The translations under genes and the position numbers were made by a program. The notes beneath the pieces are model-generated. The model was given only the letters and a program-made list of their open reading frames with translations. It made no database searches and was not told where the DNA came from. Shown here piece after piece: positions 2,445 to 22,805 of a stretch of DNA of 64,000 nt (positions within the stretch are counted from its first letter, which is position 1; each line of letters opens with the position of its first letter). Source of the stretch: a bacterium (lineage in GTDB: Bacteria; Patescibacteriota; Minisyncoccia; Phycocordibacterales; UBA6899); the NCBI GenBank assembly GCA_043756865.1, contig JAYUQG010000030.1, positions 30,703 to 94,702 on the forward strand, written 5' to 3'.

Positions 2445-3260
2445 CTAGCTATTCAAAAAGGTGGCGATGCGCGTACGAAGTCTTTTGTCGAGCATAAATG
2501 AGCTCGAAAGGTGTCCGCCTGTCTTGTACTCCGCGTATGTTGCGCGAATCATCTTTGCGAGTTTTTTTGTTGGGAGATAGGAAACGGAAGGGTCGTCTTT
2601 AGCATGCACCAGAAAAATCTTTTTGCCGTTTAATTTGTGCACCCAGTCAATCGGGTTATAAAATCGTTTCCTGAGTAGTTTCTTAAAGTTTTTTGCTTGT
2701 GTACGATATGCTCCTGGAAATCCCGCGGTTAATTGATACACAAACTCTTCAAACGGCTCGGCCTTTGTCTCAATACTCCAATCTACAACAGGAGCGACTG
2801 CGACAACTTTTGTTACCAGCGGATTTCGTGCTGCAAGTATCGCCGCAGCGCCGCCAAAGCTCGCTCCAACCACAACCACTTCGTGAAGTTCCAAGAAATA
2901 CGTTATTCCTGAATACACATCTTGAAATCCTTGAGGAATCGCAGAAATAACGTCGTCGACATCTTGCGCGGGGCTATACTTCAAAAACTCACCTTGTGAT
3001 TCCCATGTCCCTCGGTAGCGCATATGAAAAACCCAATACCCTTTGCGCACAAAATATTCCGCAAGCTTGCGCTTCGCGGGCATCGCGGGTGCACCGTCAC
3101 AAATGATTATCGCCCTGCCAGATGGCCTACGCGGTATCCAATACTCGGCAATAATCTCTCCACAAAGTAGCGTACGTCCGGATTGTAGTGGTGCTCTAGT
3201 CATGTGCGTGAGGAGACTCAACTGAACAGACGGAACAGGTGTCACAAATGCTTTGGCCAT
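2445..3260 (-). CDS. alpha/beta-hydrolase fold esterase/peptidase (dienelactone-hydrolase or prolyl-oligopeptidase-like)
   Basis: GxSxG nucleophile elbow VVVGASFGGAAA plus the downstream Asp/His region. The ORF track starts at a TTG at 3323; I prefer the ATG at 3260 (MAKAFV..., GGAAGG SD 13 nt upstream). An alternative ATG lies at 3203. The gene overlaps the 3' end of NDH-2. Confidence 0.55.
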   Translation of the reverse strand: MAKAFVTPVPSVQLSLLTHMTRAPLQSGRTLLCGEIIAEYWIPRRPSGRAIIICDGAPAMPAKRKLAEYFVRKGYWVFHMRYRGTWESQGEFLKYSPAQDVDDVISAIPQGFQDVYSGITYFLELHEVVVVGASFGGAAAILAARNPLVTKVVAVAPVVDWSIETKAEPFEEFVYQLTAGFPGAYRTQAKNFKKLLRKRFYNPIDWVHKLNGKKIFLVHAKDDPSVSYLPTKKLAKMIRATYAEYKTGGHLSSSFMLDKRLRTRIATFLNS

Positions 3261-4446
3261 TCTTGAAGGCCTTCCATGCTTTCGGAAATGGGAGTATCGC
3301 CATAAATATGTGCAGGTCTTCAAGGCGGCGGAGCCACCACCCGATGCGTCCGTAAAATTTCATTCCACCCCAAAGCACGCCCGCCCACTCGGGGCCTGCA
3401 GGAATTGCATTAATCGGCATCGTCGGGGCGTATGCAGGAAGTGCCGTGTCCGTCAGAATCGTGCGTGCAATCACCTCTCCTGCGTGCTTGCCATCGTACA
3501 TGGCAGTTTGTGCCCAGCCGGAGAATTTTGTCGCTGCGCCATCGCCAACAACAAACACCTGTGGGGTATCCTTGAGGCGAAGATGCTCGTCTACTTCCAC
3601 CTTGCCACGCTTATCTATAGGGAGTTTCCAGTTCTCGTAATGCATATTTGCGCGTACACCGGCAGTCCAAATAACTGTACGTGCCCGCATCTTCATGTCT
3701 TTGAGAAACACCTCTTCACATTCTGCACGCTCAATTGAGCGATTGAGGAAAATATTGATACCGAGGCCACGCAAATGATGCTCAATGCGGTCGGTGAATT
3801 CCTTTGGGAGTGCAGGGAGAATCTTCGGTGCTCCTTCGATAAGTTCGACAGAAACGAGTGCTGGGTCGATACCGTATTCATTCGCAAGTGCGCGTGCGTA
3901 TACAATGAGCTGCCCCGCCATTTCTACACCTGTCGCGCCTGCCCCGATGACCACAAAATGTGCGTCACAAATCTGCTCGACTTTGTTAGTGAAATCTATT
4001 TTGCAGGTGAGCAGCGTTTCGGTAATATGCTGTTTCAGTCTCAATGCTTCGGTAATCGACTTCATACCATAGGAATACTCCTTCAAGCCGGGAATATTAA
4101 AATAGTTTGTCTCGGAGCCAAGTCCGAGAATTAGATAGTCATAGTGATACCGAGAGCCGGATGAGCCAACAAGGGTCTGATTTTCTCTTTGTAGTTCAGT
4201 AATGCGATCTTCAATTACTTCGACATGCTTTCCTTCAAAAATCTCGCGCAGTGGGATGCATACTTCGAGCGGTGAGCTTCCTGTGACAAGGCGATAGAGC
4301 GCGGCGTGGTATTCAAAGTGCGGCTTATCTGCGACAAGAACAATCTTTGTATTAGAAAGCCGCTTCTTTTCGAGATGGAGTGCGGCGGTAATACCTGCAA
4401 ATCCTCCCCCGGCAATAACGATGCGCTTTTGTGTGTCAGTTGTCAT
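3196..4446 (-). CDS. ndh: type II NADH dehydrogenase (NDH-2), FAD-dependent pyridine nucleotide-disulfide oxidoreductase
   Basis: 416 aa. N-terminal dinucleotide-binding motif IVIAGGGFAGI, a second Rossmann motif VVIGAGATGVE, and an overall NDH-2 architecture. Confidence 0.8.
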   Translation of the reverse strand: MTTDTQKRIVIAGGGFAGITAALHLEKKRLSNTKIVLVADKPHFEYHAALYRLVTGSSPLEVCIPLREIFEGKHVEVIEDRITELQRENQTLVGSSGSRYHYDYLILGLGSETNYFNIPGLKEYSYGMKSITEALRLKQHITETLLTCKIDFTNKVEQICDAHFVVIGAGATGVEMAGQLIVYARALANEYGIDPALVSVELIEGAPKILPALPKEFTDRIEHHLRGLGINIFLNRSIERAECEEVFLKDMKMRARTVIWTAGVRANMHYENWKLPIDKRGKVEVDEHLRLKDTPQVFVVGDGAATKFSGWAQTAMYDGKHAGEVIARTILTDTALPAYAPTMPINAIPAGPEWAGVLWGGMKFYGRIGWWLRRLEDLHIFMAILPFPKAWKAFKNGQSICDTCSVCSVESPHAHD

Positions 4447-4988
4447 TGTGTGCGTCGCATTCCTGCGTACATCACAATGATAATCCAGATAAATGCATTC
4501 AGAGCGATCATGGGAATTGTAATGTAGCCGTATTCGAGCATATATATTTTATCACAAGATGGAAGCAAGGAGACGGCCGGACAAGGGATATTAACGTCCC
4601 CATAGAGTGCAAGCATGTCTTTTATCCATTGATAGAGCGCGACTCCCCCGCCGAGCACCGAAAGGAGGAGTGCGTACACCATAATCATGCGTTCCTTGCG
4701 CCAGAGTGCGAGACCAAAAAGAAACATCTGCGGATACATAAAAATGCGCTGTATCCAACAAAGGATGCATGCGGGAAAGCCAACAACTTCAGAGTAAATT
4801 AAGCTGCCTATGGTGGAGCCTCCTGAAATGAACAACCCAAGCCAAAGAGACCACTTCCCAAGAAAGGCCATGGCGCGATCATGTAGCGGGCGGGACAACA
4901 CGTATGACAACAAAAATGCTAGAGCGAAGACATTCCCGAAGAGTGTCGTTAGCGCAAGTGCTTTTGTAAAAAGATATGGTATGTCCAT
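4443..4988 (-). CDS. dsbB: DsbB-like disulfide bond formation protein (membrane thiol oxidase)
   Basis: 181 aa, 4 predicted TM helices. CxxC in the first periplasmic loop (ACILCWIQR, compare E. coli DsbB CVLCIYER) and a second Cys pair CPAVSLLPSC in the second loop. Confidence 0.65.
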   Translation of the reverse strand: MDIPYLFTKALALTTLFGNVFALAFLLSYVLSRPLHDRAMAFLGKWSLWLGLFISGGSTIGSLIYSEVVGFPACILCWIQRIFMYPQMFLFGLALWRKERMIMVYALLLSVLGGGVALYQWIKDMLALYGDVNIPCPAVSLLPSCDKIYMLEYGYITIPMIALNAFIWIIIVMYAGMRRTQ

Positions 4989-4995
4989 ACCGCTA

Positions 4996-5490
4996 TTAAA
5001 TGGGGCTGGGTACAGTCATATCAGGAGCAGCCTCGAGTGGAACTGTGGCACTTGTCGAAGCGGTGACTGAGGTGCCGTCAGTCGGCTTGGTGGGGTCTGC
5101 GCACCCGCTTTTTTCTGCAAGCGTACTGAATGTCTGCACACCGGTTGTCCTTGTCCCATCTTTGAATTCCCATGTTGGATAGCTTTCTACCTTCTTGCTC
5201 GCGCAGACCGCATTCTGTCCTTTCCCGTCAGCGGTCGAACACTCAACATACGGCAGCACGGAAACGGCTGAACCAAAATTTTCCTTTTGTTGTTTGCAAT
5301 GTACACACCAAAATGCGCCATAAAATGTCGCACCGCTGTCCTTCAAACACTGCGCGAGCGGAAGTGCACCCTCTGGCGCATTCTTCGATGAGGCACCTCC
5401 CGAAGTTGTGCCGCCGCTCAGCGCGAACATAATCCCTCCTACAATAAGAAGTAATAATACTACTCCACCGATGATTCCTTTGTCATTCAT
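4996..5490 (-). CDS. membrane-anchored thioredoxin-fold protein (DsbA/BdbA-like thiol-disulfide oxidoreductase)
   Basis: N-terminal TM or signal anchor and a CxxC active site FWCVHCK; immediately adjacent to the DsbB-like gene. Confidence 0.6.
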   Translation of the reverse strand: MNDKGIIGGVVLLLLIVGGIMFALSGGTTSGGASSKNAPEGALPLAQCLKDSGATFYGAFWCVHCKQQKENFGSAVSVLPYVECSTADGKGQNAVCASKKVESYPTWEFKDGTRTTGVQTFSTLAEKSGCADPTKPTDGTSVTASTSATVPLEAAPDMTVPSPI

Positions 5491-5510
5491 ATAGATTGGT
5501 AAATCCTTAA

Positions 5511-6557
5511 TTAATCAAGTTTATGCTTAAATACCACATCTCCCTTTTTCTCATGTGCAAGAAAGTTAAAGAATTGCTTCTCATTCAAGAAAGAACGATC
5601 GTAATAGTATATCAAAAACGGACTTGCAAGTTTCGAAGGATAGATAATCCACGCTTCTTTGTTCGTCTCATGTGCCTCACGCAACTCGTTCACCACCCCT
5701 GGACTGGCAGTGGGCTTAGGAAAGAACACAATAATTCTTTTTGATTGATGCAAGAGTATGTCGAGGTCAACTTTTACCGTTTGATATGTATTTGTGTACT
5801 CTGTATGATTTTTCTTTGAAAGCACCTGATTGGTGTCGGGGAATTTCCCCTTGGTAATCATTGGCACAAACACGACAAAGTACTCTTCAAGTTTCTTGAT
5901 AAAGTTATCAATTTTTTTTCTGTTTGGGCCATCCATCATGTGGGTCATCGGCATCGATATGTAGGTGGAATCCATTTCAGGGATAAATGCAAGCTTGAAA
6001 AGCGTGCACATGCGCTGTTTGTCGTAAAACCCATAGTATGGGCACTTCGAAAGTTCCGCCCACGTGGGGATTACTTCTGTCTCTACGTTCTGCCAGAGCG
6101 AAACCTCGGATTCGGTAAGGCGCTCGCGTTTCCACTGATCACGAGTACTAAGCTCCTGCACAATATCTACAGGATCACGCATAATGGTGATAAACATATC
6201 AGGCTTAAATCGCGTGATGAAATGGTGGTCGAATGAATGATGAAATGTTTTTTTCCAATAAAAAAACCCGTGGATTGAAACAACGATCAAATCGTAATTT
6301 TTATGATCATCCTTAAAACCTCGTAGCACACTTTCGTACACCCCACTGCGCAGTGCCTGCATCGTATGCTTATTGGTATTCAAAATATTCTTGGGAGTAA
6401 TATTCAGTCCATCACGCTTTGCGCGTTCAAGCATAAGTTGCCCCACATGATATACCTTTACTTTTTTTCCTAACTTTTTTGAATACTCAGCAAACCTGTC
6501 AAGATATTCTTTTCTTCCCGACCCTGATATCCCCGTACAAATGATGACTTTAGCCAT
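5511..6557 (-). CDS. P-loop kinase-like protein (adenylate/nucleoside-kinase-like N-terminus) with a C-terminal domain of unknown function
   Basis: Walker A CTGISGSGRKEY at the N-terminus. The C-terminal half has an SPGVVNELREA motif faintly reminiscent of nucleoside 2-deoxyribosyltransferase-like folds. No confident family assignment. Confidence 0.45.
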   Translation of the reverse strand: MAKVIICTGISGSGRKEYLDRFAEYSKKLGKKVKVYHVGQLMLERAKRDGLNITPKNILNTNKHTMQALRSGVYESVLRGFKDDHKNYDLIVVSIHGFFYWKKTFHHSFDHHFITRFKPDMFITIMRDPVDIVQELSTRDQWKRERLTESEVSLWQNVETEVIPTWAELSKCPYYGFYDKQRMCTLFKLAFIPEMDSTYISMPMTHMMDGPNRKKIDNFIKKLEEYFVVFVPMITKGKFPDTNQVLSKKNHTEYTNTYQTVKVDLDILLHQSKRIIVFFPKPTASPGVVNELREAHETNKEAWIIYPSKLASPFLIYYYDRSFLNEKQFFNFLAHEKKGDVVFKHKLD

Positions 6558-6788
6558 ATGTATTCAGCGTATACCAAAGGTTGGAGCGGGTCAAAAAATC
6601 TCCCAATACTTTATTGCAAATGCGCATTTCCGTCTCTGTGCGCACGTTCAATTTTCCAAAACTTCATAATTCCTTACGATATTGTGGAGCCAGCGGGCAC
6701 TCAAACTTGTCACATAGCACATAAACACAACATTAAATATTTAGTGTCAAATCTACCAATTTTTATAAGCATGATATACTTTAAACCT

Positions 6789-7175
6789 ATGGCAGAACAC
6801 AAAATACTTATCGTTGAAGACAGCGAATCACTCCGCAAAGTCCTTTCAGAAAAGCTCCGTGATGAAAAATTTGAGGTCATTGAAGCAAGTGGGGGCGAAG
6901 ATGGCGCGAAGACTGCTGAGACTGCACGCCCCGACATGATCATCACCGATATTGTGATGTTCCCTGTTGATGGACTCGAGATGGCAAAACAAATCCGACA
7001 GTCAGGAACGTGGGGGGCGGGAGTGCACATTATTGCCCTCACAAACCAAAACAGTGCAGAAGAGGAGCAGCGACTCGCCGGACTCAATCTTACTGCATAT
7101 CTCGTCAAAGCAGAGACTGGTCTTGATGAAGTAGTAAAACATGTAAAGGAGGTGCTCAAGGAAAAAAAGAAATAA
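6789..7175 (+). CDS. stand-alone response regulator receiver domain (CheY-like)
   Basis: Start moved to the ATG at 6789 (MAEHKILIVEDSE...). Has the acidic pocket DD, the phospho-acceptor Asp in MIITDIVMP-like context, and a conserved Thr/Lys; 128 aa with no output domain. Confidence 0.8.
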   Translation: MAEHKILIVEDSESLRKVLSEKLRDEKFEVIEASGGEDGAKTAETARPDMIITDIVMFPVDGLEMAKQIRQSGTWGAGVHIIALTNQNSAEEEQRLAGLNLTAYLVKAETGLDEVVKHVKEVLKEKKK

Positions 7176-7182
7176 CCACCGT

Positions 7183-7572
7183 ATGGAAAAAGACAAAAAA
7201 ACCATTCTTATTGTTGAAGATGACCTTGCACTCCGAAAGGTGCTCGTTGACAAACTCACCGATGAAGGGTTTGACGTACTGGAAGCACAAGATGGAATAC
7301 AAGGACTCAAACAGGCGACCGAAAAACATCCTGAGCTTATTTTGCTTGATATTTTTATGCCAAACATGGATGGAATCACCATGCTCTCCAAACTAAGAAG
7401 TCTCGATGCGTGGGGAAAACACATCTCTGTTATTGTGCTCACCAACTCCACAGACGCACAAACAATTGCAAAAGTCTCAGGGTTTGGTGGAACTGACTTT
7501 CTTATAAAATCTGAGTGGTCTCTCGAAGCACTCGTTGCGAGAATTCGAGAACGCCTAGCTCCGCACGAGTAA
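7183..7572 (+). CDS. stand-alone response regulator receiver domain (CheY-like), tandem paralog
   Basis: 129 aa, ILIVEDD...LILLDIFMPNMDG...VIVLTN...K; 8 bp after the previous receiver gene. Confidence 0.85.
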   Translation: MEKDKKTILIVEDDLALRKVLVDKLTDEGFDVLEAQDGIQGLKQATEKHPELILLDIFMPNMDGITMLSKLRSLDAWGKHISVIVLTNSTDAQTIAKVSGFGGTDFLIKSEWSLEALVARIRERLAPHE

Positions 7573-7595
7573 GAGGGGGATTCCATTCACCCCCC

Positions 7596-8093
7596 ATGAA
7601 CTACTGGCTAATGAAAAGCGAGCCGCAACCAAATGCGGAAGGTCGCTTATTGCACGACAGACCCGAGGAATATCTTTCTATAGATGACCTTCGTGTTATA
7701 AAACGTGCACCATGGATTGGTGTGCGTGGTTACGCTGCGCGCAATTTCATGCGAGACGATATGCAAATAGGTGACCTTATCATCTTTTACCACTCGAGTG
7801 CATCACCGTCCGGCCCCGCAGGTGTTGCGATGGTCTGCTCTCTATCCTACCCCGACTTTACGCAATTTGATAAGCATTCGAAATATTTTGATATCAAAGC
7901 GACCCCAGAAAAACCTCTATGGTACATGGTTGATGTTGAATTTGTAGAACAATTTGCACGCACCATTTCTCGTGAAGTACTTCGTGCGGTGCCACAGCTC
8001 GCAGACATGAAGCTTTGGAAACAACCTCGACTCTCAATATCAGATATCACAAAAAGTGAATTCGAAAAGATTGTTGCGCTTGGTAAAAATTAA
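7596..8093 (+). CDS. EVE (PUA-like) domain protein
   Basis: MNYWLMKSEPQ... start with the typical EVE N-terminus. 165 aa with IIFYHSS and WYMVDVEF motifs. Confidence 0.6.
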   Translation: MNYWLMKSEPQPNAEGRLLHDRPEEYLSIDDLRVIKRAPWIGVRGYAARNFMRDDMQIGDLIIFYHSSASPSGPAGVAMVCSLSYPDFTQFDKHSKYFDIKATPEKPLWYMVDVEFVEQFARTISREVLRAVPQLADMKLWKQPRLSISDITKSEFEKIVALGKN

Positions 8094-8136
8094 ATCAATA
8101 ACAGCACACTCTGTAGTTGTAATTCAGCAAATTTTT

Positions 8137-8793
8137 CTATTCGGGAACTATTCCAAATTTTTCAACGAGCGTGCACAGGTCTTCAATTGTTTGCTGAAGC
8201 ACCACAGGCTCCACGTAAACGTTGGTCTGCGCATAGTACCTCATAATTTGGGGGTGGCGCACTATAAACTCTCTGCTCATGTGTATTTCTTTTCCTGAAC
8301 GGAAATATGATGACTCTTTAAGAAAATATTTTGAAATTTTTTGAGCCAAATCATCGTTCTGCATGAGCACACTTTCTATGCGCTCCAGAAACTGCTCATC
8401 ACTTGAACCAATGAGTAGATTTACTCCTCCTATCATCAAATTCTTACGATGATTTTTTGCCCGAAGATTCCAGTCAAACTGAAACTTTGTCGCCTCAGCA
8501 TTCGCAATAAGGAATTCAGCTGGGGAACGGACTTTTGCCCACAACACTGGGGTTTTCAGAATAAACCCATATGAGATCGCACCACTGCCTTGAATCTTAT
8601 AATGAAAATCATAGCCACGCGCGCGAAATTGTAATCCAGATTCTAAGCACGAGTAGCTTGCATTAAAATGAGTTTGCAGTTTTTGTAATGCACTCTTTGT
8701 TTGAATACATAAGTACCACATTAATACAAAACCTATGCCGAGTAAAAACATGGCCCCCCATGGTGAAACTAAAAAATCGAGTGTTGCTAGCAT
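8137..8793 (-). CDS. hypothetical membrane-anchored protein
   Basis: 218-aa ORF with an N-terminal hydrophobic helix; no recognised motif. Confidence 0.4.
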   Translation of the reverse strand: MLATLDFLVSPWGAMFLLGIGFVLMWYLCIQTKSALQKLQTHFNASYSCLESGLQFRARGYDFHYKIQGSGAISYGFILKTPVLWAKVRSPAEFLIANAEATKFQFDWNLRAKNHRKNLMIGGVNLLIGSSDEQFLERIESVLMQNDDLAQKISKYFLKESSYFRSGKEIHMSREFIVRHPQIMRYYAQTNVYVEPVVLQQTIEDLCTLVEKFGIVPE

Positions 8794-9024
8794 GGCATAA
8801 TTATTATGATACTGAAATTATACACAAATCTTTCTAGGAGCATAACGCTCAAACAATGCGCAACTTGCAATTTTTTCACAAATGAATAGCCGCGTCTCGT
8901 GAGAGAACGCGGCATCTTCCTTTGGCCCAAACGGGAAAAAGAAACTACAAACAGAACGGGGCTGTTTCAATTCTACACCTAAGTGAGGATAAGCGCAACA
9001 GTGCTTTCGGTGTACAATGTAACC

Positions 9025-9441
9025 ATGATACAGGTTGCAGGTGGAGTAGTATGGAACCCCAAATTGGGCATTGCTGTCGTGAGTCAAAACCACGATTCTT
9101 GGTCACTTCCCAAGGGGCACGTAGAGGACGGAGAAAGCACACTAGAGGCTGCTAGACGCGAAATAGAGGAAGAAACGGGCATTCCCCACACCGCACTGAC
9201 ATTGGTGAGAGAAATCGCTAGTTATGAGCGTGCGCGCATAAAAAGACATCATAAAGATACGCCTGAAATGCGCCATATTACTCTCTTTTTCTTCACCACA
9301 GGCCATGAAACCCTCGCACCAACAGACTCCATTAACCCCGAAGCCCGGTGGGTGGATCCAAAAGATGTCCCCTCTTTTTTGACCCATCCTATTGATAAAA
9401 AAGAATTCGAGCGTATCATTCAGCTAGATTTATTTCGCTAA
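9025..9441 (+). CDS. NUDIX hydrolase
   Basis: Nudix box GHVEDGESTLEAARREIEEETGI (Gx5Ex7REUxEExGU); start taken at MIQVAGGVVWN. Confidence 0.8.
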   Translation: MIQVAGGVVWNPKLGIAVVSQNHDSWSLPKGHVEDGESTLEAARREIEEETGIPHTALTLVREIASYERARIKRHHKDTPEMRHITLFFFTTGHETLAPTDSINPEARWVDPKDVPSFLTHPIDKKEFERIIQLDLFR

Positions 9442-9472
9442 AAAAGGATACCTACAAACGTAGGGAAAAATC

Positions 9473-9994
9473 ATGCCCCCCACCGGTGAAGAACAAAATC
9501 ATGTTCAGTACGCAATGCTCGAGAACGAACTTGCTGCGCAAATGGCCGATGCGGAGCTTTTTGTACGTACGCTCGAAGATCGCGCAAAGGAAGAAGGTCG
9601 CGTACTTACGGGCGACGAGCGTAATCTCGCGCAAAAAATTCTGAATGCTCCCGCAGAGAGGGTTATTCCAATGGAAAGCGCGAAACTGCGCTCTTTCCTT
9701 AACCACATCGAGCCAAAGGAGTGGGCAAGATTTAATACTCTAGCGGCGGCCGTTGCAGAAGACCGTGAGGACGAGGCTGAGGTTGCATACTTTGTTGACC
9801 TCTACCACAATTTCTGTGCTGAATATGATGAATGGGTTAAAAGCTGGATTGGCACACTCGATCCCGATACCCTCACCGCATTGAGCGACGCATTGGCGGA
9901 CAAGGACAATCCGGAAGCACTTGTAACCGTCCAGCATATCACCGAGTCGCTTGTACTACGCAGAGAACGCCAGATTGACCGCATCGAAGAATAG
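9473..9994 (+). CDS. hypothetical acidic protein
   Basis: 173-aa ORF with good coding compositional signal, followed by a bidirectional terminator at 10003..10030. Confidence 0.45.
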   Translation: MPPTGEEQNHVQYAMLENELAAQMADAELFVRTLEDRAKEEGRVLTGDERNLAQKILNAPAERVIPMESAKLRSFLNHIEPKEWARFNTLAAAVAEDREDEAEVAYFVDLYHNFCAEYDEWVKSWIGTLDPDTLTALSDALADKDNPEALVTVQHITESLVLRRERQIDRIEE

Positions 9995-10002
9995 CCAAGA
10001 AC

Positions 10003-10030
10003 AAAAACCACCCAAGTGGGTGGTTTTTTT
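10003..10030. terminator. bidirectional rho-independent terminator
   Basis: AAAAA-ccacccaagtgggtgg-TTTTTTT, a perfect hairpin flanked by A and T runs, between convergent genes 9473..9994 (+) and copZ (-). Confidence 0.8.
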
Positions 10031-10033
10031 GTA

Positions 10034-10246
10034 TTATTTGGCTTTGTATCCGAGCGTTTCAATTTCTTTGATGATAGCTTCTTTCGAAGTCTTCTCATCA
10101 TCGAACTCCCAATCACCATTCTTTGCGTCATATGACACAAACACACTACTGACACCCTCAACACCCTCAGTGACCATCTGTATACCCGTCGCGCATGCAC
10201 CGCAGTGCATACCCTCTATGTCCATGTGTAATTTTTGTACTGCCAT
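10034..10246 (-). CDS. copZ: copper chaperone CopZ (HMA domain)
   Basis: 70 aa with the MxCxxC metal-binding motif GMHCGACA. Confidence 0.85.
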   Translation of the reverse strand: MAVQKLHMDIEGMHCGACATGIQMVTEGVEGVSSVFVSYDAKNGDWEFDDEKTSKEAIIKEIETLGYKAK

Positions 10247-10287
10247 ATAAATGTGAATAAATTAAGGTTACTTGTAATAAGTATATC

Positions 10288-10551
10288 CTATCTTTTAAAT
10301 TTTCTGAAAAGCATTAAGCATAGCATGCCGATTCCATAGAAAAGTGCGCAATTCAAGCCCGCTTCTACTGCAGCAACAAACCAATAAAGCGCGTCGTTGT
10401 TCCAACCCCAAGATGGAGCTAGCACGAGCGACCAAGGAAGGAGGCTCAGCATGAGACCAAGGTCGCCGAGAAACACTCTGTCGTAATCAATGATCGCCCA
10501 TGCAAAAACACATCCGTAGATCCCGACAAAGATAAGTGGAATATGTCTCAT
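10288..10551 (-). CDS. small hypothetical membrane protein
   Basis: 87 aa with two hydrophobic helices, between copZ and copA. Confidence 0.35.
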   Translation of the reverse strand: MRHIPLIFVGIYGCVFAWAIIDYDRVFLGDLGLMLSLLPWSLVLAPSWGWNNDALYWFVAAVEAGLNCALFYGIGMLCLMLFRKFKR

Positions 10552-10569
10552 GTAGCATCGTCGGTATAC

Positions 10570-13086
10570 CTAAACCTTCTTTGCAGCCAGTTCTTCTTCC
10601 TTCTTCGATTTCATGATTTGCTTTTCAATTGGTGGAACGAAGCGTTTCAATGTAAGCGAGTTCACCACAACCGAAATTGAGCTAAATGCCATGGCAAATC
10701 CTGCTATCTCAGGGCGTAGTGTTGCTTGCGAGAGGTTGAGGAAAGGTTGCCCAAGCCAGCCCAGATTCTCTTTGAGGCCGATGACCCAAAGAGCCGCCTG
10801 TCCTGCCGTTTGCGTGACCATAAGATGCGCTCCGGCGGCAACGGGAATAGCAACCACATTGTAGAAAAATGCCCAGAAAAGATTTTGCCACACCTTCTTG
10901 ATAGTCTTTGAAGAGAGCTGAATGGCCGTTGCTACGTCACGCAGGTCGTCTTTCACAAGAATGATTTCTCCGGTTTCTAGCGCAACGTCAGAGCCCGATC
11001 CAATAGCGATTCCGAGGTCACTCTGCGCAAGTGCAGGTGAGTCGTTGATACCGTCGCCCACCATAGCGACAACCTTCCCTTCTGCTTGCAGTTCTTTGAT
11101 TTTCTTCGCCTTATCCTGTGGAAGCACTTCTGCAAGGAAGCGATCGATGCCAACCTGCTTTGCAATCGCTGCTGCGGTACGAGGATTATCACCCGTAATC
11201 ATGATGATTTCTTTGCCCATGCGCTGTAGTTCTTGGATTGCTTCACGAGCGTAGGGCTTGAGTGCATCTGCCATTGCAATGAGCGCAACGAGCTTCCCGT
11301 CTACAACCATATAAACTGTGGTTTTGGCCTCTTCTTGTAGACGCGTCATGAGTGCCTCATGTGCCGTGGTGTCGACATTCAGCGTTTCCATGTACTTCTG
11401 ATTTCCAATGGCAATCTGCTTACCATTTACGTTTGCATGAAGTCCCATTCCTGCTACAGCCTCAAAATCTTTCGGTTCAAGGAGTTTCTTGCCCCCTTCT
11501 TTGCCCTTCTCCACCACTGCGCGTGCGAGTGGGTGCTCTGAGCCTGTTTCAAGCGATCCGGCGAGAAGGATTGCTTCTTCCTTGTCGAATGATGCGTCCA
11601 CCATTTCAAAGTCTGTAACAATTGGTTTTCCTATGGTAAGTGTACCGGTCTTGTCGAATGCCACTGCGGTAACACGATATGCCTTCTCAAGCGCCGCACC
11701 ACCTTTCAAAATTATGCCAAACTTTGCCGCCCGCCCAATACCCACCACCAGCGCCGTCGGAGTCGCGAGACCCATCGCACATGGACAAGAAATTACGAGT
11801 ACGGCGATCATCTTCGTGAGTGCGGGGCGGATTTGGTCTGGAACAAAGATAAAGTACCATACGCAAAATGTCAGCACCGAGAGAAATACTACTGCAGGAA
11901 CGAAGTATTCACTTATCTTATCTACGAGATCCTGAATGGGTGCTTTACGAGCCTGCGCCTCTTCAACCATGCGAATGATCTGGTAGAGGAGTGTGTCTTT
12001 CCCAATCTTCTCTGCTTTGACCTTTATAAGGCCTTCTTGATTGATGGTGGCTCCAATGACCTGATCACCGATGGTCTTGCCAACCGGAAATGACTCGCCC
12101 GTGACCACCTTCTCATCTAAATGTGTTTTTCCCTCAACAATAACCCCATCCACGGGTACTTTCTCACCGGGACGCACAAGGAGGACATCTCCCACAATGA
12201 GTTCAGCAAGTGGGACCGTGACTTCTTCGCCATTTCGCATGACATGCGCTTCTTTTGCCTCAAGCTTCATGAGCTCCTTGATCGCAGCTGATGCACGACC
12301 CTTGGCGACGATTTCTACATATCGCCCAAGCAAAATGAACACGAGGAGGGCTGCGGAGGATTCCCAGAACGGGTGGTCGATATTGAAGAACAGGAAGCCG
12401 AGCATGGAATAGAAGTACGCAGCTGAAGTACCGAGTGCGACAAGCACGTCCATGTTCGCAGACCCAACGCGAATCGATGTAAATGCATTGCGGTAAAACT
12501 GGTAGCCGATAATGAACTGAATTGGAGTAGAAAGGATCCAGTAGATCCAGTTGAGGTCTATGCGGATAGGAGGATTCATTGGATCTATTCCAAAGAGTAA
12601 GACAATGGCCTTCAACGGTTGTGCAATAAGCCAGAAAAGCCATTGAATACCGAATGAAATTGTACCCAAGATTCCGGACTCTGCTGTTGCAGGATACGAA
12701 AGCGACATGAAATCAAAGAGCTCATGCACATGTGTGAGGTTAAACATGTGAATCGCCATGTAATACGAGATGATAGGAAGCGCGAGTACAAGCGCAGCGA
12801 CAAAACGGCGTCGTGCCTCTTCTATTTTCCGAGCATCTTTGGCTTCATCTTCTTCAATAGAGGCAGATTCTTCGTCCGGACGAATAATATCGTACCCGAG
12901 CTGATTCATGAACTTGTCTATTTTCACAAGATCAATCTTTGTCTCGTCGTACTCAATCGCGGTTTTTTCCGCCCCATACGAGGTAGTCACGGACTGCACT
13001 CCCAGTTGCTTCCCGACAAGTTTGTCGATGAGCACCGAGCACGATGCGCAATGCATTCCTTTGACCTTGAGTACAACTTTTTGCAT
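10570..13086 (-). CDS. copA: copper-translocating P1B-type ATPase CopA
   Basis: 838 aa. N-terminal HMA GMHCASCS, the CPC motif in TM6 (ISCPCAMGLATP), the phosphorylation site DKTGTLT, and the hinge GDGINDSPAL. Confidence 0.95.
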   Translation of the reverse strand: MQKVVLKVKGMHCASCSVLIDKLVGKQLGVQSVTTSYGAEKTAIEYDETKIDLVKIDKFMNQLGYDIIRPDEESASIEEDEAKDARKIEEARRRFVAALVLALPIISYYMAIHMFNLTHVHELFDFMSLSYPATAESGILGTISFGIQWLFWLIAQPLKAIVLLFGIDPMNPPIRIDLNWIYWILSTPIQFIIGYQFYRNAFTSIRVGSANMDVLVALGTSAAYFYSMLGFLFFNIDHPFWESSAALLVFILLGRYVEIVAKGRASAAIKELMKLEAKEAHVMRNGEEVTVPLAELIVGDVLLVRPGEKVPVDGVIVEGKTHLDEKVVTGESFPVGKTIGDQVIGATINQEGLIKVKAEKIGKDTLLYQIIRMVEEAQARKAPIQDLVDKISEYFVPAVVFLSVLTFCVWYFIFVPDQIRPALTKMIAVLVISCPCAMGLATPTALVVGIGRAAKFGIILKGGAALEKAYRVTAVAFDKTGTLTIGKPIVTDFEMVDASFDKEEAILLAGSLETGSEHPLARAVVEKGKEGGKKLLEPKDFEAVAGMGLHANVNGKQIAIGNQKYMETLNVDTTAHEALMTRLQEEAKTTVYMVVDGKLVALIAMADALKPYAREAIQELQRMGKEIIMITGDNPRTAAAIAKQVGIDRFLAEVLPQDKAKKIKELQAEGKVVAMVGDGINDSPALAQSDLGIAIGSGSDVALETGEIILVKDDLRDVATAIQLSSKTIKKVWQNLFWAFFYNVVAIPVAAGAHLMVTQTAGQAALWVIGLKENLGWLGQPFLNLSQATLRPEIAGFAMAFSSISVVVNSLTLKRFVPPIEKQIMKSKKEEELAAKKV

Positions 13087-13112
13087 AACAGAATAATGAA
13101 ATGATTAAATAA

Positions 13113-13850
13113 TTACGGCAACATGCGCACGTCAGCTTTCTCGTCAGTGTGATATTCGTATTTCTTGTCACCAGCTTCAAGCACGACGCGGTACCCAGGA
13201 ACGAGCGCGGCTGTACACGCCCCTTCGGGAAATGGGATGTCGAGACATCCGTTTGACCAAGTGATTGCACTAAAGCTTACAATTTTGACATTTGTTTCGC
13301 CAATTTTTAATTCTGCGGCAAGCGATTTTTGAGCCAATACCACCACTGGAGGTGTTGGTCCTGCGGGTTCAATAATAGCTACCGTGTCATCCTCGATCTT
13401 CGGCGCTACTCCAATTTCATTGACATGGAGTACTCCAATTTGGTCAAAATGACTACGTTTCTGTCCCTTATATTTTCCTGACTCCGCTACACCTTCGTTA
13501 CATGATACTGAACAATAAAATTGGAAGTTGCCTGCTTTCGTAACTACAAACGGTGGTACATCAAGTGTGGCGCGGGCTGGGATACGCTGTGACACACCGT
13601 AGGCATCGATACCCACCCCGTGATCGTATTCATCTTCGTTCACAAACTTCATTTTCACCGTATCACCGCGAGTCGCATAAATGTGCTCAGGCTCAAATAC
13701 CCATGAATTTTTGAGAATGGTAATAGTAAACTCCTTGACCGATCCAGTGTCCACCGGTTTTTGTGAATCGGGAATAAGAAATGAGCGATAGATAACTCCT
13801 GATGCAATCAGGGCGACTAAGACGATCATCAATGTTATGTATTTGTTCAT
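13113..13850 (-). CDS. secreted/membrane-anchored cupredoxin-like domain protein (atypical copper-site ligands)
   Basis: N-terminal signal anchor. The domain GDTVKMKFVNEDEYDHGVGI...NFQFYCSVSCNEG parallels the plastocyanin-like C-terminus of ORF 38957..40267 (FEYYCSVGDHRAQGM), but has C-x-x-x-C in place of C-x-x-H-x-x-x-x-M. It is adjacent to copA. Confidence 0.45.
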   Translation of the reverse strand: MNKYITLMIVLVALIASGVIYRSFLIPDSQKPVDTGSVKEFTITILKNSWVFEPEHIYATRGDTVKMKFVNEDEYDHGVGIDAYGVSQRIPARATLDVPPFVVTKAGNFQFYCSVSCNEGVAESGKYKGQKRSHFDQIGVLHVNEIGVAPKIEDDTVAIIEPAGPTPPVVVLAQKSLAAELKIGETNVKIVSFSAITWSNGCLDIPFPEGACTAALVPGYRVVLEAGDKKYEYHTDEKADVRMLP

Positions 13851-13878
13851 ACGTGCTGTATATATCTATCAACTAAAA

Positions 13879-14259
13879 TTATGCTACGGGCTTTTCTTCA
13901 TTTTTTGCTTCTGACGTCAACTTGACTGGAGGAACTTGCAAATACTTCCAGACCCCAACCGAGAGCAACGCCATGAGTGTGAGAGAAGTCATCATTACGC
14001 CCCACCAGGGTCCAGTACCAGGCTTGAGTATGCTGGATCCCCCCTGTGCATGCGAGTGGTCCGTATGACCGTCTCCCACCCCGTCCGCGACAGGTGCAGG
14101 TGCATGATCATGCCCAGCTGCGCCCACCCCGCCCAAAAGCTCATAATTTGCTCCCACAGAAATATAGTGCGCACTCGCAGACATTGGCACAAATGCGCTC
14201 GCAGTAACGATCTGTATTGCAACGACGAGAAATGTGATTTTTTTAGCAGAGTTTTTCAT
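13879..14259 (-). CDS. His-rich putative metal-binding protein with signal peptide and C-terminal TM anchor
   Basis: 126 aa: signal peptide, a HDHAPAPVADGVGDGHTDHSH His cluster, and a C-terminal hydrophobic helix. Confidence 0.4.
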   Translation of the reverse strand: MKNSAKKITFLVVAIQIVTASAFVPMSASAHYISVGANYELLGGVGAAGHDHAPAPVADGVGDGHTDHSHAQGGSSILKPGTGPWWGVMMTSLTLMALLSVGVWKYLQVPPVKLTSEAKNEEKPVA

Positions 14260-14281
14260 ACGTAAGTCAGAAATAAATAAA

Positions 14282-15829
14282 TTAATGTCCGTGAGGCATC
14301 GACTCCTTCACCACTGGAGCTACATTTGGCGCAGACACACCTGCGTCGATCTTCTTGATCGCGTCACTCACTGTAGTTGCTGTTACTGCAGGCGCACCAT
14401 GATTCATAGACCCCATTTCCGCTCCACCTCCTGCTTGGCCTCCATGCCCCTTCACTCCCTCAAAGTTCATAAACCAAAATGGAAGGAAGACTGCGAATAC
14501 TGCAATTAGGAGAAGTGAGAGTGTGAGATACCAGTTCCTGCGCACATGCAGGAGCTGCTCTTCATATGCTTGCGAAGTTGCATCACGAAGTCCGCTTTCT
14601 GCTCCATAGCGCATTGCCTCTTCGAGTGCCAAACGCTCTTTTACAACCCCATCAAACTGGTTCTCTAATTCTTTTACCCGATTCCCCTGCTCACCTTCAG
14701 GAATGTGCAATACTACTTCGATACCGCGACGCTCTTCTTCAATCTTTGCAAGTTGTCTCTCAAGTTTTTGAATTTGGAGCGCAGGTGTTCCCAGTACGCG
14801 TTTCTTCTCCCTTGCATATGACCACCAAAATGGAAGGAGCCACAAAAACACGATGAACCAGTTGCCCCACTCAAGTGGCTGACCAAATATACCGCGGGAG
14901 TCTCCTTTGGCTACGCCATGGGCGTGAGCAACCTCAGTATTCAACTGCTCATTCATGCGCGTATTAAAGGCCTGCTCGTTGGTGATTTTTTCAAGAATGT
15001 TGTGTTGACCCGAATTCGTCCACCAATCATGAGTGAAGAGCCCAAGGGTGAGGATGAATCCTGCCACAAAGACCATCGCCCAACCGTTCACGCGCTCAAT
15101 CTTATCTTTGCGCGCAACGAGCCAATTAAGTCCATTCACCCCAAGCACTCCAAGCACCGCGAGAAGAATGAGCGGCAATACACGCCCAATCGCATGCACA
15201 AAGAACATTGACCATCCGTAGAATACATCTGCAGAAGAAGCAATTTCAATCAATATAAGTGGTGTTGCGGGGTGTGGACATCCAACACCGACATTACCGA
15301 GGAACATGCCGAGCAGAAATGCTTTGGCGTAATCTTTTCGCTTCTGAATGAAGTCGGGCGCAGAACCTGTATAGGAAGGCATGTGGAACTTCACAAGTCC
15401 TATCTCAGCAAGTGCGAAGGTATATGCAAATATACCCGCAAAGAAATATACCCAGTTCTTGATGTCATCTACTTGTGCTCCCATCATCGAAAGACCGGCT
15501 TTGCCTGCGAGCGCGGCGAGCACTCCGTACACAGAGAGCATGAGCGCGACACCAAGACCAAATGAGAGTGCTGTGCCGAGACCTTTGACGAGGCCTTTGC
15601 CCATGGAAAGTGGAACAATGACAAAAGCGAGAGGAAGCGTACACGGAAGCACAATCATCGTTAGCCCTGCCGCAAATGAGAAGAGATACCAGCCGAGTTT
15701 ACCCAGCTCTGCTCCTGCCTGTGGTGCAAGAAAAAGAAACCAGAAAAGCCCGACACCAATAACCGCAGTAATAATGAGTGCCGTAACTGCAATTATCGCC
15801 TTCAGTCTACTGTTTGATTGTTGTTCCAT
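14282..15829 (-). CDS. CcdA/DsbD-like transmembrane thiol-disulfide transporter domain fused to a coiled-coil region and a His-rich tail
   Basis: 515 aa. N-terminal ~270 aa polytopic with Cys-in-TM motifs LPCTLPLAF and GVGCPHP (compare CcdA PCVLPL). It is followed by a coiled coil, two more TM helices and a C-terminal ...MNHGAP...MPHGH. Confidence 0.45.
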   Translation of the reverse strand: MEQQSNSRLKAIIAVTALIITAVIGVGLFWFLFLAPQAGAELGKLGWYLFSFAAGLTMIVLPCTLPLAFVIVPLSMGKGLVKGLGTALSFGLGVALMLSVYGVLAALAGKAGLSMMGAQVDDIKNWVYFFAGIFAYTFALAEIGLVKFHMPSYTGSAPDFIQKRKDYAKAFLLGMFLGNVGVGCPHPATPLILIEIASSADVFYGWSMFFVHAIGRVLPLILLAVLGVLGVNGLNWLVARKDKIERVNGWAMVFVAGFILTLGLFTHDWWTNSGQHNILEKITNEQAFNTRMNEQLNTEVAHAHGVAKGDSRGIFGQPLEWGNWFIVFLWLLPFWWSYAREKKRVLGTPALQIQKLERQLAKIEEERRGIEVVLHIPEGEQGNRVKELENQFDGVVKERLALEEAMRYGAESGLRDATSQAYEEQLLHVRRNWYLTLSLLLIAVFAVFLPFWFMNFEGVKGHGGQAGGGAEMGSMNHGAPAVTATTVSDAIKKIDAGVSAPNVAPVVKESMPHGH

Positions 15830-15863
15830 GAATACGCGTGAATAATAAAAAATAACACACCCC

Positions 15864-16136
15864 CTATGCAGGAAGTGCGGAAAGTGACTTTAATTTTTCG
15901 ACAAATTTCTCCTTGTTGAAACCTCCTGTTGCAAATACTTCGTTATCCAAAATAATTCCTGGTGAAGCGAAAATCTGGTACTTGCTGACCATTTCCTGGC
16001 CTTCTGGTGTGATAATAGAGAGCTCCTTCATGGCGACGTTCTTCCACTCGCCTTCAATCGTCTTCCAGTATTCTAAAAATTCATGGCAGTGGGTACAGCC
16101 AGGAGCGGTCAATACTTCGAGTGTAATGTTCTTCAT
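15864..16136 (-). CDS. small thioredoxin/glutaredoxin-like protein
   Basis: 90 aa with a CxxC active site APGCTHCH; adjacent to the CcdA-like gene. Confidence 0.65.
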   Translation of the reverse strand: MKNITLEVLTAPGCTHCHEFLEYWKTIEGEWKNVAMKELSIITPEGQEMVSKYQIFASPGIILDNEVFATGGFNKEKFVEKLKSLSALPA

Positions 16137-22010: not shown

Positions 22011-22805
22011 ATGGAAGAGCAAACACCTAAGTCTGATAAGACTCATGTAGCGACACCAACCCCAAAACGTAGGGGCGACGATTTGAGTATCCCACTCGCT
22101 ATTATCTTTGCGGGAGTCTTGGTTGCAGGCGCAATTATTTTCTCGGAACGCGCAACTCCTGTGGTGAAACAACCCGTGGTAGAGGCGGGCGTACGCGACA
22201 CTGTTGGCGCCGATGAAGCAAATGCCCCAGTTGAGTTGCTCGCACTTGTTGCGGATGATCACATTCTCGGTAACCCCAATGCCGAAGTACTTATCATTGA
22301 ATATTCCGACCCCGAGTGCCCTTTCTGTAAACGTTTTCATGAAACAATGGTTCAAGTCATGGAACAATACGGAAAATCGGGACAAGTCGCTTGGGTCTAT
22401 CGCCACTTCCCTCTTGATCAAATTCACCCCAAAGCCCGAAAGGAAGGTGAGGCGCAAGAATGTGCAGCAGAGCTTGGTGGAAATGAAGCCTTCTGGAAAT
22501 ATACCGACAAGTTATTTGAGATCACCCCCGCCAATAATGGCCTTGACCTCGCACAGCTACCAAAACTTGCCCAGACCATTGGCCTCGATGGAGTTGCGTT
22601 TACCGCATGTCTCGACAGTGGCAGATATGCAGCGCGTGTGCAGCGCGACTTTGAAAACGGCGCAAATGTTGGTGTACGTGGTACACCATATACAATCGTC
22701 TGGAATAAAACGACTGGAAAACAAATGCCACTCAATGGTGCATATCCATTCGAGAATATGAAAACAATCCTTGGGCTTATGATAGAGGCTCCTAAAGCAA
22801 AGTAA
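22011..22805 (+). CDS. DsbA-family thiol:disulfide interchange protein with N-terminal membrane anchor
   Basis: CPFC active site in SDPECPFCKRFH, a thioredoxin fold, and a hydrophobic N-terminus. Confidence 0.8.
   Translation: MEEQTPKSDKTHVATPTPKRRGDDLSIPLAIIFAGVLVAGAIIFSERATPVVKQPVVEAGVRDTVGADEANAPVELLALVADDHILGNPNAEVLIIEYSDPECPFCKRFHETMVQVMEQYGKSGQVAWVYRHFPLDQIHPKARKEGEAQECAAELGGNEAFWKYTDKLFEITPANNGLDLAQLPKLAQTIGLDGVAFTACLDSGRYAARVQRDFENGANVGVRGTPYTIVWNKTTGKQMPLNGAYPFENMKTILGLMIEAPKAK

Follow-up and report, generated by a model that had tools for sequence, protein, structure and literature searches.

Why should genes for copper export and genes for thiol-disulfide exchange lie next to each other in a bacterium of the candidate phyla radiation (CPR)? 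The question is raised by the 64 kb stretch of DNA analysed here (the window), in which an earlier note had listed a DsbB-like protein with a thioredoxin-fold partner, CopZ, CopA, a cupredoxin-like protein, a His-rich protein, a CcdA-like protein, a small thioredoxin and a DsbA-like protein. All of these open reading frames (ORFs) are present where the note placed them, and domain searches confirm the families to which they were assigned. Seven genes on the minus strand, running from 16136 to 10034, are read as a single operon because they share a strand, are separated by gaps of 18–41 nt and end at a hairpin. Their order is Trx3, CcdA-like, His-rich, cupredoxin, CopA, an 87-aa ORF and CopZ. 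The nearest relatives of the window are metagenome-assembled genomes of 'Candidatus Lloydbacteria' (82–91% protein identity), its homologues belong to Patescibacteria/Parcubacteria, and the operon is the Lloydbacteria version of a copper-handling operon that is common to CPR bacteria. The explanation we favour, with a confidence a little short of even, is that copper export and reductant import together keep an extracytoplasmic CuA-type copper site assembled. The features of the operon are as follows.

15864..16136, minus strand: Trx3, a mini-thioredoxin of 90 aa, first gene of the operon (PF13192, CTHC)
14282..15829, minus strand: CcdA/DsbD-type transporter, 515 aa (PF02683)
13879..14259, minus strand: His-rich protein, 126 aa (no Pfam or NCBIfam family)
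13113..13850, minus strand: membrane-anchored cupredoxin, 245 aa (fold match, CuA register)
13440..13514, minus strand: putative ligand loop of the cupredoxin, Cys113-x3-Cys117-x16-His134-x2-Gln137 (alignment)
10570..13086, minus strand: CopA, an 838-aa P1B-1 Cu(I)-exporting ATPase (TIGR01511)
10288..10551, minus strand: hydrophobic ORF of 87 aa between copA and copZ (no family)
10034..10246, minus strand: CopZ, a 70-aa cytoplasmic HMA copper chaperone, closing the operon (PF00403)
10003..10028, strand-neutral: hairpin with an 11-bp stem and A and T runs on its flanks (AAAAACCACCCAAGTGGGTGGTTTTT)

CopA scores 595 bits with TIGR01511 (cut-off 397), carries the motifs CPC434, DKTGT478, TGES329, YN742 and MAFSS799, and has one N-terminal HMA domain with Cys13 and Cys16. 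CopZ matches PF00403 with 44.5 bits (gathering threshold, GA, 24.8) and has the MxCxxC motif with Cys15 and Cys18. The 87-aa ORF between them is a doubtful member of the operon: it gave no tblastn match in 87 related loci and no Pfam or NCBIfam family, and in close relatives copZ follows directly after copA with no ORF between. The hairpin is likely to be a bidirectional terminator, serving both the operon and the convergent ORF at 9473–9994. A promoter scan found 11 candidates, against 9.1 expected after shuffling, and no promoter is claimed.

To place the operon among its relatives, one genome per species (GTDB representatives) was scanned for the cupredoxin and 80 loci were kept, 79 of which carry Patescibacteria/CPR lineage labels. 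Related loci were searched by tblastn with every window protein. Upstream counts refer to the 55 loci with at least 5 kb of upstream sequence, and downstream counts to the 54 with at least 5 kb downstream. A CcdA-like gene lies upstream of the cupredoxin gene, on the same strand, in all 55 loci, and a Trx3 gene in 51. Between the CcdA-like core and the cupredoxin, 49 of the 55 carry a His-rich two-domain module, named 'FxHxHP' after its motif, or a multicopper oxidase (MCO). Downstream and again on the same strand, copA and copZ are each found in 52/54 loci, and the cupredoxin gene stands immediately upstream of copA in nearly all. The order differs in Microgenomates (e.g., Levybacteria), where it is DoxX, cupredoxin, CopA, CopZ, a small ORF, CcdA-like with FxHxHP modules and Thioredoxin_3. 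The same set thus occurs in shuffled order in two CPR superclades, which points to selection on the set and not on the neighbourhood, and conservation of the set despite reshuffling argues strongly for a function in common. Within the operon, the association of thiol-redox with copper genes goes far beyond what chance would give.

The cupredoxin and its putative copper site

The AlphaFold2 (AF2) model of the cupredoxin has a pLDDT of 89.7, with 80 homologues in the alignment, and consists of an N-terminal anchor and a β-sandwich:

13776–13844, minus strand: transmembrane (TM) anchor helix, residues 3–25 (AF2)
13413–13745, minus strand: Greek-key β-sandwich, residues 36–146 (AF2)

These are followed by a linker that is disordered in the model and by a C-terminal α+β domain (residues 165–245, with Cys202 and Cys212) that is found only in the closest relatives. 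The strands of the modelled sandwich run from residue 38 to 144, and the modelled α+β domain from 168 to 243. The protein scores 25.9 bits with PF13473 (Cupredoxin_1; GA 27, E 1.1e-5), and precomputed PF13473 matches are present on many of its orthologues. Nitrosocyanin is its best match both in structure (Foldseek, 4e-7, probability 1.00) and in sequence (family profile, E 4e-10). Foldseek also gave a probability of 1.00 for the B. anthracis Cupredoxin_1 protein 4hcf and for CuA domains, namely those of ba3 oxidase and N2O reductase, and matched CupA (4f2e) with E 2e-5. The earlier description of a 'cupredoxin-like lipoprotein' therefore holds for the fold and fails for the lipid anchor: the only four cysteines are at positions 113, 117, 202 and 212, there is no Cys before residue 113 and hence no lipobox, and membrane attachment is by the helix at residues 3–25.

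Several features of the family bear on the side of the membrane. In some homologues about 40 hydrophilic residues precede the anchor helix, in DoxX–cupredoxin fusions four helices and a Lys-Lys cluster can be read ahead of it, and the C-terminal extensions of cupredoxins carry extra Cys pairs. On these grounds the cupredoxin domain is predicted to lie outside the membrane.

Cys113 and Cys117 form a C-x3-C motif that never varies, either in the 80 aligned homologues (80/80) or in the 86 related loci with a cupredoxin match. His77 and His134 are likewise invariant in the 80 homologues. Against the NosZ (N2O reductase) CuA domain the family profile gives E 1e-7, with His, Cys and Cys in register, and a phmmer alignment to Thermus CuA gives the same register for His77, Cys113 and Cys117. 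His77, at a distance of 36 residues from Cys113, pairs with the His of NosZ DVSHG and with that of Thermus CuA; the two cysteines pair with those of NosZ CSWFC and CoxII CSEIC.

The second His departs from this pattern. In the canonical C-x3-C-x3-H it is found at Cys2+4, whereas His134 is at Cys2+17, and the window protein does not have the canonical spacing. The difference is a 13-residue insertion (residues 121–133) that displaces both His134 and Gln137: in an alignment of forms with 0, +8 and +13 residues, the window loop CSVSC-NEG-[VAESGKYKGQKRS]-HFDQIG equals the canonical CSVPC-GEG-HYDQIG plus 13 inserted residues. The insertion is 8 residues long in most Parcubacteria, with a range of 8–25 between Cys2 and His2. 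DSSP assigns short β-bridges in the AF2 model between residues 120–121 and 131–132, and the insert is predicted to be a β-hairpin able to bring His134 back to the site. Orthologues free of the insertion have C-x3-C-x3-H-x2-(Q/M), the exact CuA loop (CSVPCGEGH-YD-Q/M).

The loop was also surveyed in more distant relatives. A filter-free profile search of 1.84 billion representatives returned 1,159 relatives at E≤1e-10, counted as clusters of a library clustered at 50% identity, and the census covered 146 representatives new to the profile search among 150 matches listed. Among these 146 distant representatives, 101 sites have the canonical C-x3-C-x3-H-x2-(M 86 / Q 14 / H 1) and 28 the expanded, window-like C-x3-C-x11-16-H-x2-(M 15 / Q 13). 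The loop is expanded in every scorable related locus, with an axial Met in 63 and Gln in 19 of 82. At this axial position the window has Gln137 and not the Met of CuA, and the distant representatives listed have Met in 101 cases and Gln in 27. Taken together, the alignments suggest a putative CuA-type ligand set of His77, Cys113, Cys117 and His134, with Gln137 as the axial residue.

A type 1 (blue) copper site, with a single Cys in the arrangement His…Cys-x(2-4)-His-x(2-4)-Met, does not describe this protein, which has two Cys and a spacing of 20 residues between Cys1 and His2. The earlier note had seen C-x-x-x-C where the His and Met ligands of such a site were expected; C-x3-C is instead the CuA motif, and His134 and Gln/Met137 are kept behind the hairpin insertion. 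Since the CuA register and these residues are retained, a type 1 site with missing ligands is rejected, and for the same reason the conclusion drawn from it, a Cu(I) trap rather than an electron-transfer centre, loses its basis in the sequence; biochemically a trap could still form.

Among the known cupredoxins, the CuA domains of cytochrome c oxidase subunit II and N2O reductase share with the window protein the fold, the His…Cys-x3-Cys register and a second His followed by Met/Gln at +3. The window protein differs from them in being stand-alone, anchored at its N-terminus, encoded in a cop operon and present in lineages not known to respire, and in its 13-residue insertion between Cys2 and His2 and its axial Gln. 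Nitrosocyanin (PDB 1iby/1ibz), a red copper protein, is likewise small and stands alone; its copper site is mononuclear with one Cys ligand, and the alignment shows Glu at the position of His77 and no C-x3-C. CupA of Streptococcus pneumoniae resembles the window cupredoxin in its N-terminal TM anchor, cupredoxin fold, thiolate ligands and location next to copA (PMC7558416), but it faces the cytoplasm, uses Cys…Cys-x-Met-x-Met and replaces CopZ, whereas the window operon retains CopZ and a CuA-type motif. Membership of the CupA family was rejected, as the window protein has no CxMxM motif and the indications on topology favour an extracytoplasmic domain. CopI of Rubrivivax gelatinosus is similar in being an extracytoplasmic cupredoxin-type protein that is encoded with copA and needed for copper resistance, but it is described as a plastocyanin-like single-copper protein (PMC7558416) and has no C-x3-C, no linked CcdA/Trx and, in the searches made, no detected homology to the window protein. 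PmoD/AmoD is a natural CuA-forming cupredoxin outside oxidases and reductases, membrane-tethered and found in copper-related operons (PMC6189053); PmoD, however, forms CuA across a homodimer with Cx7MxH near its N-terminus and is without the canonical β7–β8 ligand loop seen in the window cupredoxin.

Variants of the family were seen in other lineages. The Microgenomates loci L091–L094 (proteins P0412 and P0414) have canonical CuA spacing, and a DoxX/MauE-type membrane protein precedes the cupredoxin or is fused to it. Among the distant representatives, CuA-motif cupredoxins are fused to a multicopper oxidase and a Sco-like CxxxC domain (P0292) or to a NirK-like domain (P0302), and in P0280 the CuA-motif cupredoxin domain is repeated three times.

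The CcdA-like transporter, Trx3 and the His-rich proteins

The CcdA-like protein matches PF02683 over residues 50–226 (37.9 bits, GA 27.1). When aligned to E. coli DsbD by hhalign, its Cys63 (PCTLP) falls on the Cys of TPCVLP and its Cys184 (GCPHP) on the Cys of SPCTT, both of which are catalytic. The two cysteines, one in each half of the six-TM core, are at least 90% conserved in the CcdA-like family. CcdA (5vkv) is the sole meaningful PDB match of the AF2 model (pLDDT 81), with a probability of 0.98, a TM-score of 0.46 on the target and a modest E of 0.12, and the sequence profile of the family returned only noise from the PDB. From the N-terminus, the layout is an extra TM helix, the six-TM core, a His loop, a TM helix, a hairpin, a last TM helix and a tail, in three parts:

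14795–15829, minus strand: core of the CcdA-like protein
14582–14794, minus strand: helical hairpin
14282–14581, minus strand: last TM helix and tail

The positive-inside pattern suits nine helices with the N-terminus inside, and places His267, the HxH loop and the C-terminal tail outside. The outside loop carries His267, His302 and His304, of which both His267 and the His302-x-His304 pair are conserved, while the helical hairpin (about residues 349–408) is cytoplasmic. The C-terminus is ESMPHGH (14285–14305, minus strand), an instance of a conserved 'ES.PH.H' motif that is internal in the long fusions of relatives.

The TM core, 60–90% identical, is common to more than 1,400 relatives, which occur in four forms. 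The first is the core alone (about 345 aa). The second, seen in the window, adds the cytoplasmic helical hairpin, a TM helix and a His tail (about 505 aa). The third joins the core to two FxHxHP immunoglobulin-like (Ig-like) domains and a C-terminal anchor (740–880 aa), and the fourth joins it to a two-domain multicopper oxidase whose best matches are copper-resistance MCOs and CueO. The MCO or FxHxHP modules occupy the same C-terminal position as the hairpin and tail of the window protein, and the long forms continue exactly at the point where it stops (ESMPHGH).

The 126-aa His-rich protein has a signal-like N-terminus, His residues at positions 31, 50, 52, 65, 68 and 70, and a C-terminal TM anchor. 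It is a separate ORF in nine loci of the Lloydbacteria clade. Its last 48 residues (GDGHTDHSHA…PWW…TM) match the tail of a 377-aa FxHxHP protein from locus L004 (48% identity, E 1e-9), one of the separate FxHxHP proteins of 377–400 aa that occur in relatives. Because the CcdA-like protein ends at ESMPHGH and the His-rich ORF matches an FxHxHP tail, the window clade appears to carry the minimal version of this arrangement: as judged from the alignments, the 126-aa ORF is a minimal FxHxHP protein whose Ig-like domains have been lost. The FxHxHP modules resemble YtkA-like domains (PF13115) weakly, with matches below E 0.1 in 8/55 and a best value of 2.3e-5. Searched as a profile against the PDB they had no match, and Pfam and NCBIfam gave only these weak YtkA-like matches.

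Trx3 matches PF13192 with 29.3 bits (GA 24.8), has Cys14-Thr-His-Cys17 and lacks a signal peptide. Of 70 orthologues, with a typical length of 87 aa, 66 retain the CxxC. From these features Trx3 is presumed to supply the CcdA-like protein with electrons from the cytoplasm.

The CcdA-like protein also has paralogues in which one or both catalytic cysteines are replaced (Ser/Ser, Cys/Gly or Gly/Ser among P0172, P0175, P0168 and P0230) and the outside His motifs are lost. P0172, the one paralogue whose locus was examined (L089 and L090), still follows a gene for a CxxC mini-thioredoxin. L089 is Lloydbacteria GFS_12411, JAYSTI010000001.1, where the Cys-replaced paralogue lies at 7692–9368 and the Trx3/paralogue pair fills the neighbourhood (NUDIX, two receivers, AAA_17, Trx, DsbB) that in the window belongs to the full operon.

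Two known reductive systems are close to this arrangement. The line of TlpA, ScoI and PcuC (PCuAC, YtkA) shares a reduced Cys pair outside the membrane, a reductive pathway fed from the cytoplasm, copper chaperones and a CuA cupredoxin (PMC6669012). The window operon differs from it in having no TlpA-like or Sco-like protein; its presumed reductase is a membrane transporter, its target is not an oxidase subunit, and the modules that resemble chaperones either form part of the transporter or have shrunk to His-rich tails. Scs (ScsB/C/D) and E. coli DsbD (CutA2) share the DsbD-family transporter with its catalytic cysteines, and are linked to copper tolerance (PMC10907172, PMC3322552). Unlike them, the window protein is without the α and γ periplasmic redox domains, and has a CcdA-size core with extra helices, a hairpin and copper-binding C-terminal modules. 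Membership of the Scs family was rejected, as only the TM core matches DsbD and no ScsC-, ScsD- or DsbC-type partner is encoded in the operon.

Possible functions of the operon

The steps of the favoured explanation, in which exported copper and imported reductant maintain the CuA-type site, can be set out as follows. CopZ would hand cytoplasmic Cu(I) to CopA, and CopA would export it, as is known for these families. Outside, the HxH loop and the ES.PH.H tail of the transporter and the 126-aa His-rich peptide may capture the exported copper and pass it on; in relatives, the FxHxHP Ig-like modules or the fused copper-resistance-type MCO would take this capture position. The anchored cupredoxin would then hold copper at its thiolate-bridged, CuA-type site, the assignment of which follows from homology. 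The cell has DsbB/DsbA-type oxidants, which would drive Cys113 and Cys117 to a disulfide, and these thiols must therefore be kept reduced; Trx3 and the CcdA-like protein, through Cys63 and Cys184, would do this, in parallel to TlpA acting for CoxB and ScoI in CuA assembly. Extracytoplasmic CuA cysteines require a dedicated reductase and copper chaperones (TlpA/ScoI/PcuC; PMC6669012), and the Cu-induced, DsbD-like Scs pathway is a precedent (PMC10907172). The loaded cupredoxin might finally act as a redox-active copper buffer or relay at the surface, stopping re-entry of Cu(I), which is the least certain step. The transporter is tied to copper by its fusions to copper-resistance-type MCO and His-rich modules, and on the strength of these fusions and the operon linkage the suggestion of the earlier note that it couples reductant import to copper handling is a reasonable one. 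Its observation as a whole was thus confirmed in part, and its interpretation supported in part.

A number of points weigh against this explanation. None of the operons examined encodes a thioredoxin-fold acceptor on the outer side of the membrane, and we know of no precedent for CcdA acting directly on a cupredoxin. The window clade is without MCO and FxHxHP modules, and no MCO, NirK or FxHxHP module was found within the 64 kb. In two loci with 10 kb of downstream sequence available (L018 and L019) and in a shorter one (L005), Trx3, CcdA-like and cupredoxin genes occur without a nearby copA. The persistence of Cys-less CcdA-like paralogues hints at a scaffold role beyond thiol exchange, no copper-responsive regulator was identified beside the operon, and a protein that binds two coppers would make a poor stoichiometric sink. 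With its widened loop and Gln137, the site might also be mononuclear or otherwise different from CuA. A stronger proposal, which is possible though we find it distinctly less likely than the favoured one, is that the anchored cupredoxins are genuine binuclear CuA proteins, canonical in Microgenomates and expanded in Parcubacteria, that the operon is a self-contained assembly unit for them, in which CopZ/CopA supply copper, Trx3 and the CcdA-like protein reduce the cysteines and chaperone-like or MCO modules are fused on, that they form a surface redox relay, and that CcdA here serves a substrate other than a thioredoxin.

The widened loop and Gln137, as departures from canonical CuA, would also suit a redox-inert, CupA-like Cu(I) chaperone or trap that binds the copper leaving CopA tightly through Cys113 and Cys117 (with or without His), the CcdA-like protein and Trx3 doing no more than keep the thiols reduced. 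CupA of S. pneumoniae is such a protein, an anchored Cu(I) chaperone of cupredoxin fold with a bis-thiolate site, encoded beside copA (PMC7558416), and both the structural match to 4f2e (E 2e-5) and the place of the cupredoxin gene immediately upstream of copA in nearly all loci agree with this. CupA, however, works on the cytoplasmic side, where CopZ already fills the chaperone role in the present operon, and the window cupredoxin is predicted to be outside and lacks the C…CxMxM motif. Since all the CuA ligands are conserved, the axial Met/Gln among them, and the spacing in orthologues free of the insertion is exactly that of CuA, we consider a trap unlikely. A little less likely again is a module for cuproprotein biogenesis, with the cupredoxin as a CuA electron carrier for a surface MCO or NirK, CopA/CopZ in the part of CopA2/CcoI, CcdA/Trx3 in that of TlpA and FxHxHP in that of PCuAC. 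Every factor class for CuA assembly is indeed represented (PMC6669012), cupredoxins have been proposed as NirK electron donors in Parcubacteria (PMC5581439), some relatives have an MCO joined to the CcdA-like protein, and the distant fusions to MCO plus Sco-like (P0292) and NirK-like (P0302) domains and the YtkA-like matches in 8/55 FxHxHP modules are of the same kind. Yet the window clade has no MCO, NirK or FxHxHP within 64 kb, the fused MCO best matches copper-resistance MCOs and CueO, the YtkA similarity is weak, and a copZ–copA pair is the classical arrangement for detoxification.

The remaining two alternatives take the cupredoxin out of the centre. General repair of envelope thiols under copper stress, in the manner of Scs or DsbD–DsbC and with the cupredoxin as an independent protein and not a substrate, would agree with the oxidising DsbB/DsbA set of the organism, with the location of E. 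coli dsbD beside cutA, and with the known part of DsbD-type reductive pathways, including Scs, in copper tolerance (PMC10907172, PMC3322552). It is improbable, because no operon encodes a DsbC-, ScsC- or ResA-like acceptor, copper-binding modules are fused to the transporter itself, and transporter and CuA-motif cupredoxin co-occur in 55/55 loci and, despite reshuffling, in both CPR superclades. Very improbable, finally, is a CcdA-like domain that is itself the copper conduit, moving copper across or along the membrane by means of Cys63, Cys184-Pro-His186, His212 and the outside His residues, with Trx3 as a cytoplasmic metallochaperone. GCPHP puts Cys and His together in a TM segment and resembles the CPC/CPH metal sites of P1B ATPases, and the conserved outside His residues and the fusions to copper domains could be read in this way; an NCBIfam Ni/Co efflux match on one relative (E 0.91) is not significant. 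Cys63 and Cys184, however, align exactly with the redox cysteines of DsbD, the fold is closest to that of the electron transporter CcdA, a CxxC thioredoxin serves as partner, and export is already provided by CopA.

Neighbouring genes and wider meaning

The other thiol-redox genes of the window are separate from the operon. They comprise an oxidative-folding unit of three genes and a distant DsbA-like gene:

3196..5490, minus strand: oxidative-folding unit (VKOR-type Trx-like, DsbB/BdbC-like, NDH-2-like flavoprotein)
4996–5490, minus strand: VKOR-type Trx-like protein, CVHC (PDB 3kp8, E 3e-19)
4443–4988, minus strand: DsbB/BdbC-like protein, Cys74/77 and Cys136/145 (PF02600, 31 bits, GA 22.1)
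3196–4446, minus strand: NDH-2-like flavoprotein, start overlapping the DsbB stop by 4 nt
22011..22805, plus strand: membrane-anchored DsbA/BdbD-like protein, CPFC, Cys103/106 (PF13462, 83 bits)

The product of 4996–5490 is a stand-alone protein homologous to the thioredoxin-like domain of bacterial VKOR, and the DsbB-like protein is below the NCBIfam cut-off for BdbC (94.6 vs 124). About 4.5 kb of unrelated genes on both strands separates this unit from the operon: AAA_17, two receiver domains, EVE, a 218-aa ORF of no family (8137–8793), NUDIX and a 173-aa ORF. DsbB with its Trx partner lies near the module in 2/54 loci, both of them the closest Lloydbacteria relatives, and DsbA, which is only loosely syntenic, in the 10 kb upstream in 7/55, on the other strand in most cases. 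A single 12-kb cluster that takes in DsbB/Trx and DsbA, as proposed in the earlier note, is ruled out by these counts and by the spacer; what stands of it is the conserved block from 16136 to 10034.

Some further observations were made in this region. A flavoprotein homologous to the NDH-2-like protein (31% identity, E 1e-47) is encoded divergently beside the DoxX–cupredoxin–CopA operon and Ni-SOD in the Levybacteria loci L091 and L092. Between the redox units, 6558–9994 holds two stand-alone receivers, EVE, NUDIX and two ORFs of no family, and the receiver, NUDIX and AAA_17 part of this spacer is conserved in Lloydbacteria GFS_12411. Divergent from the upstream region of the operon is a ClpP-like ORF of 242 aa with an N-terminal extension (16293–17021, plus strand), and beyond it a 930-aa ORF without a Pfam match (17934–20726, minus strand) lies where GC rises locally to 0.544 compared to about 0.47.

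In full-text searches of the literature, neither this operon nor CuA-motif cupredoxins with a part in copper resistance nor CcdA–MCO fusions were found described, and public annotations go no further than 'cupredoxin domain-containing protein', 'plastocyanin', 'cytochrome c oxidase subunit 2' and 'CcdA'. Each part is of a known kind; what is new is the combination, the expanded loop of the putative CuA-type site and the fusion of copper modules to a thiol transporter. The only natural CuA sites of which we are aware are those of heme-copper oxidases, N2O and NO reductases, and PmoD. Oxidase and N2O reductase are the natural comparators named for CuA (PMC6189053), and a stand-alone family with the CuA ligand set would widen where CuA occurs and what it is used for. 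If these proteins are genuine CuA proteins, they would be a large, overlooked natural class outside respiratory oxidases and reductases, and may provide a redox relay at the surface of bacteria that are believed to have no electron-transport chains, for use in detoxifying copper or in reducing oxygen or nitrite. One transcription unit would pack every factor class for an extracytoplasmic thiolate–copper site into a compact CuA-type assembly system, and would allow direct service of a cupredoxin by CcdA to be tested. For CPR bacteria, which have few assigned envelope systems, the operon points to an envelope function conserved across the lineage, either copper defence or a hidden redox activity.

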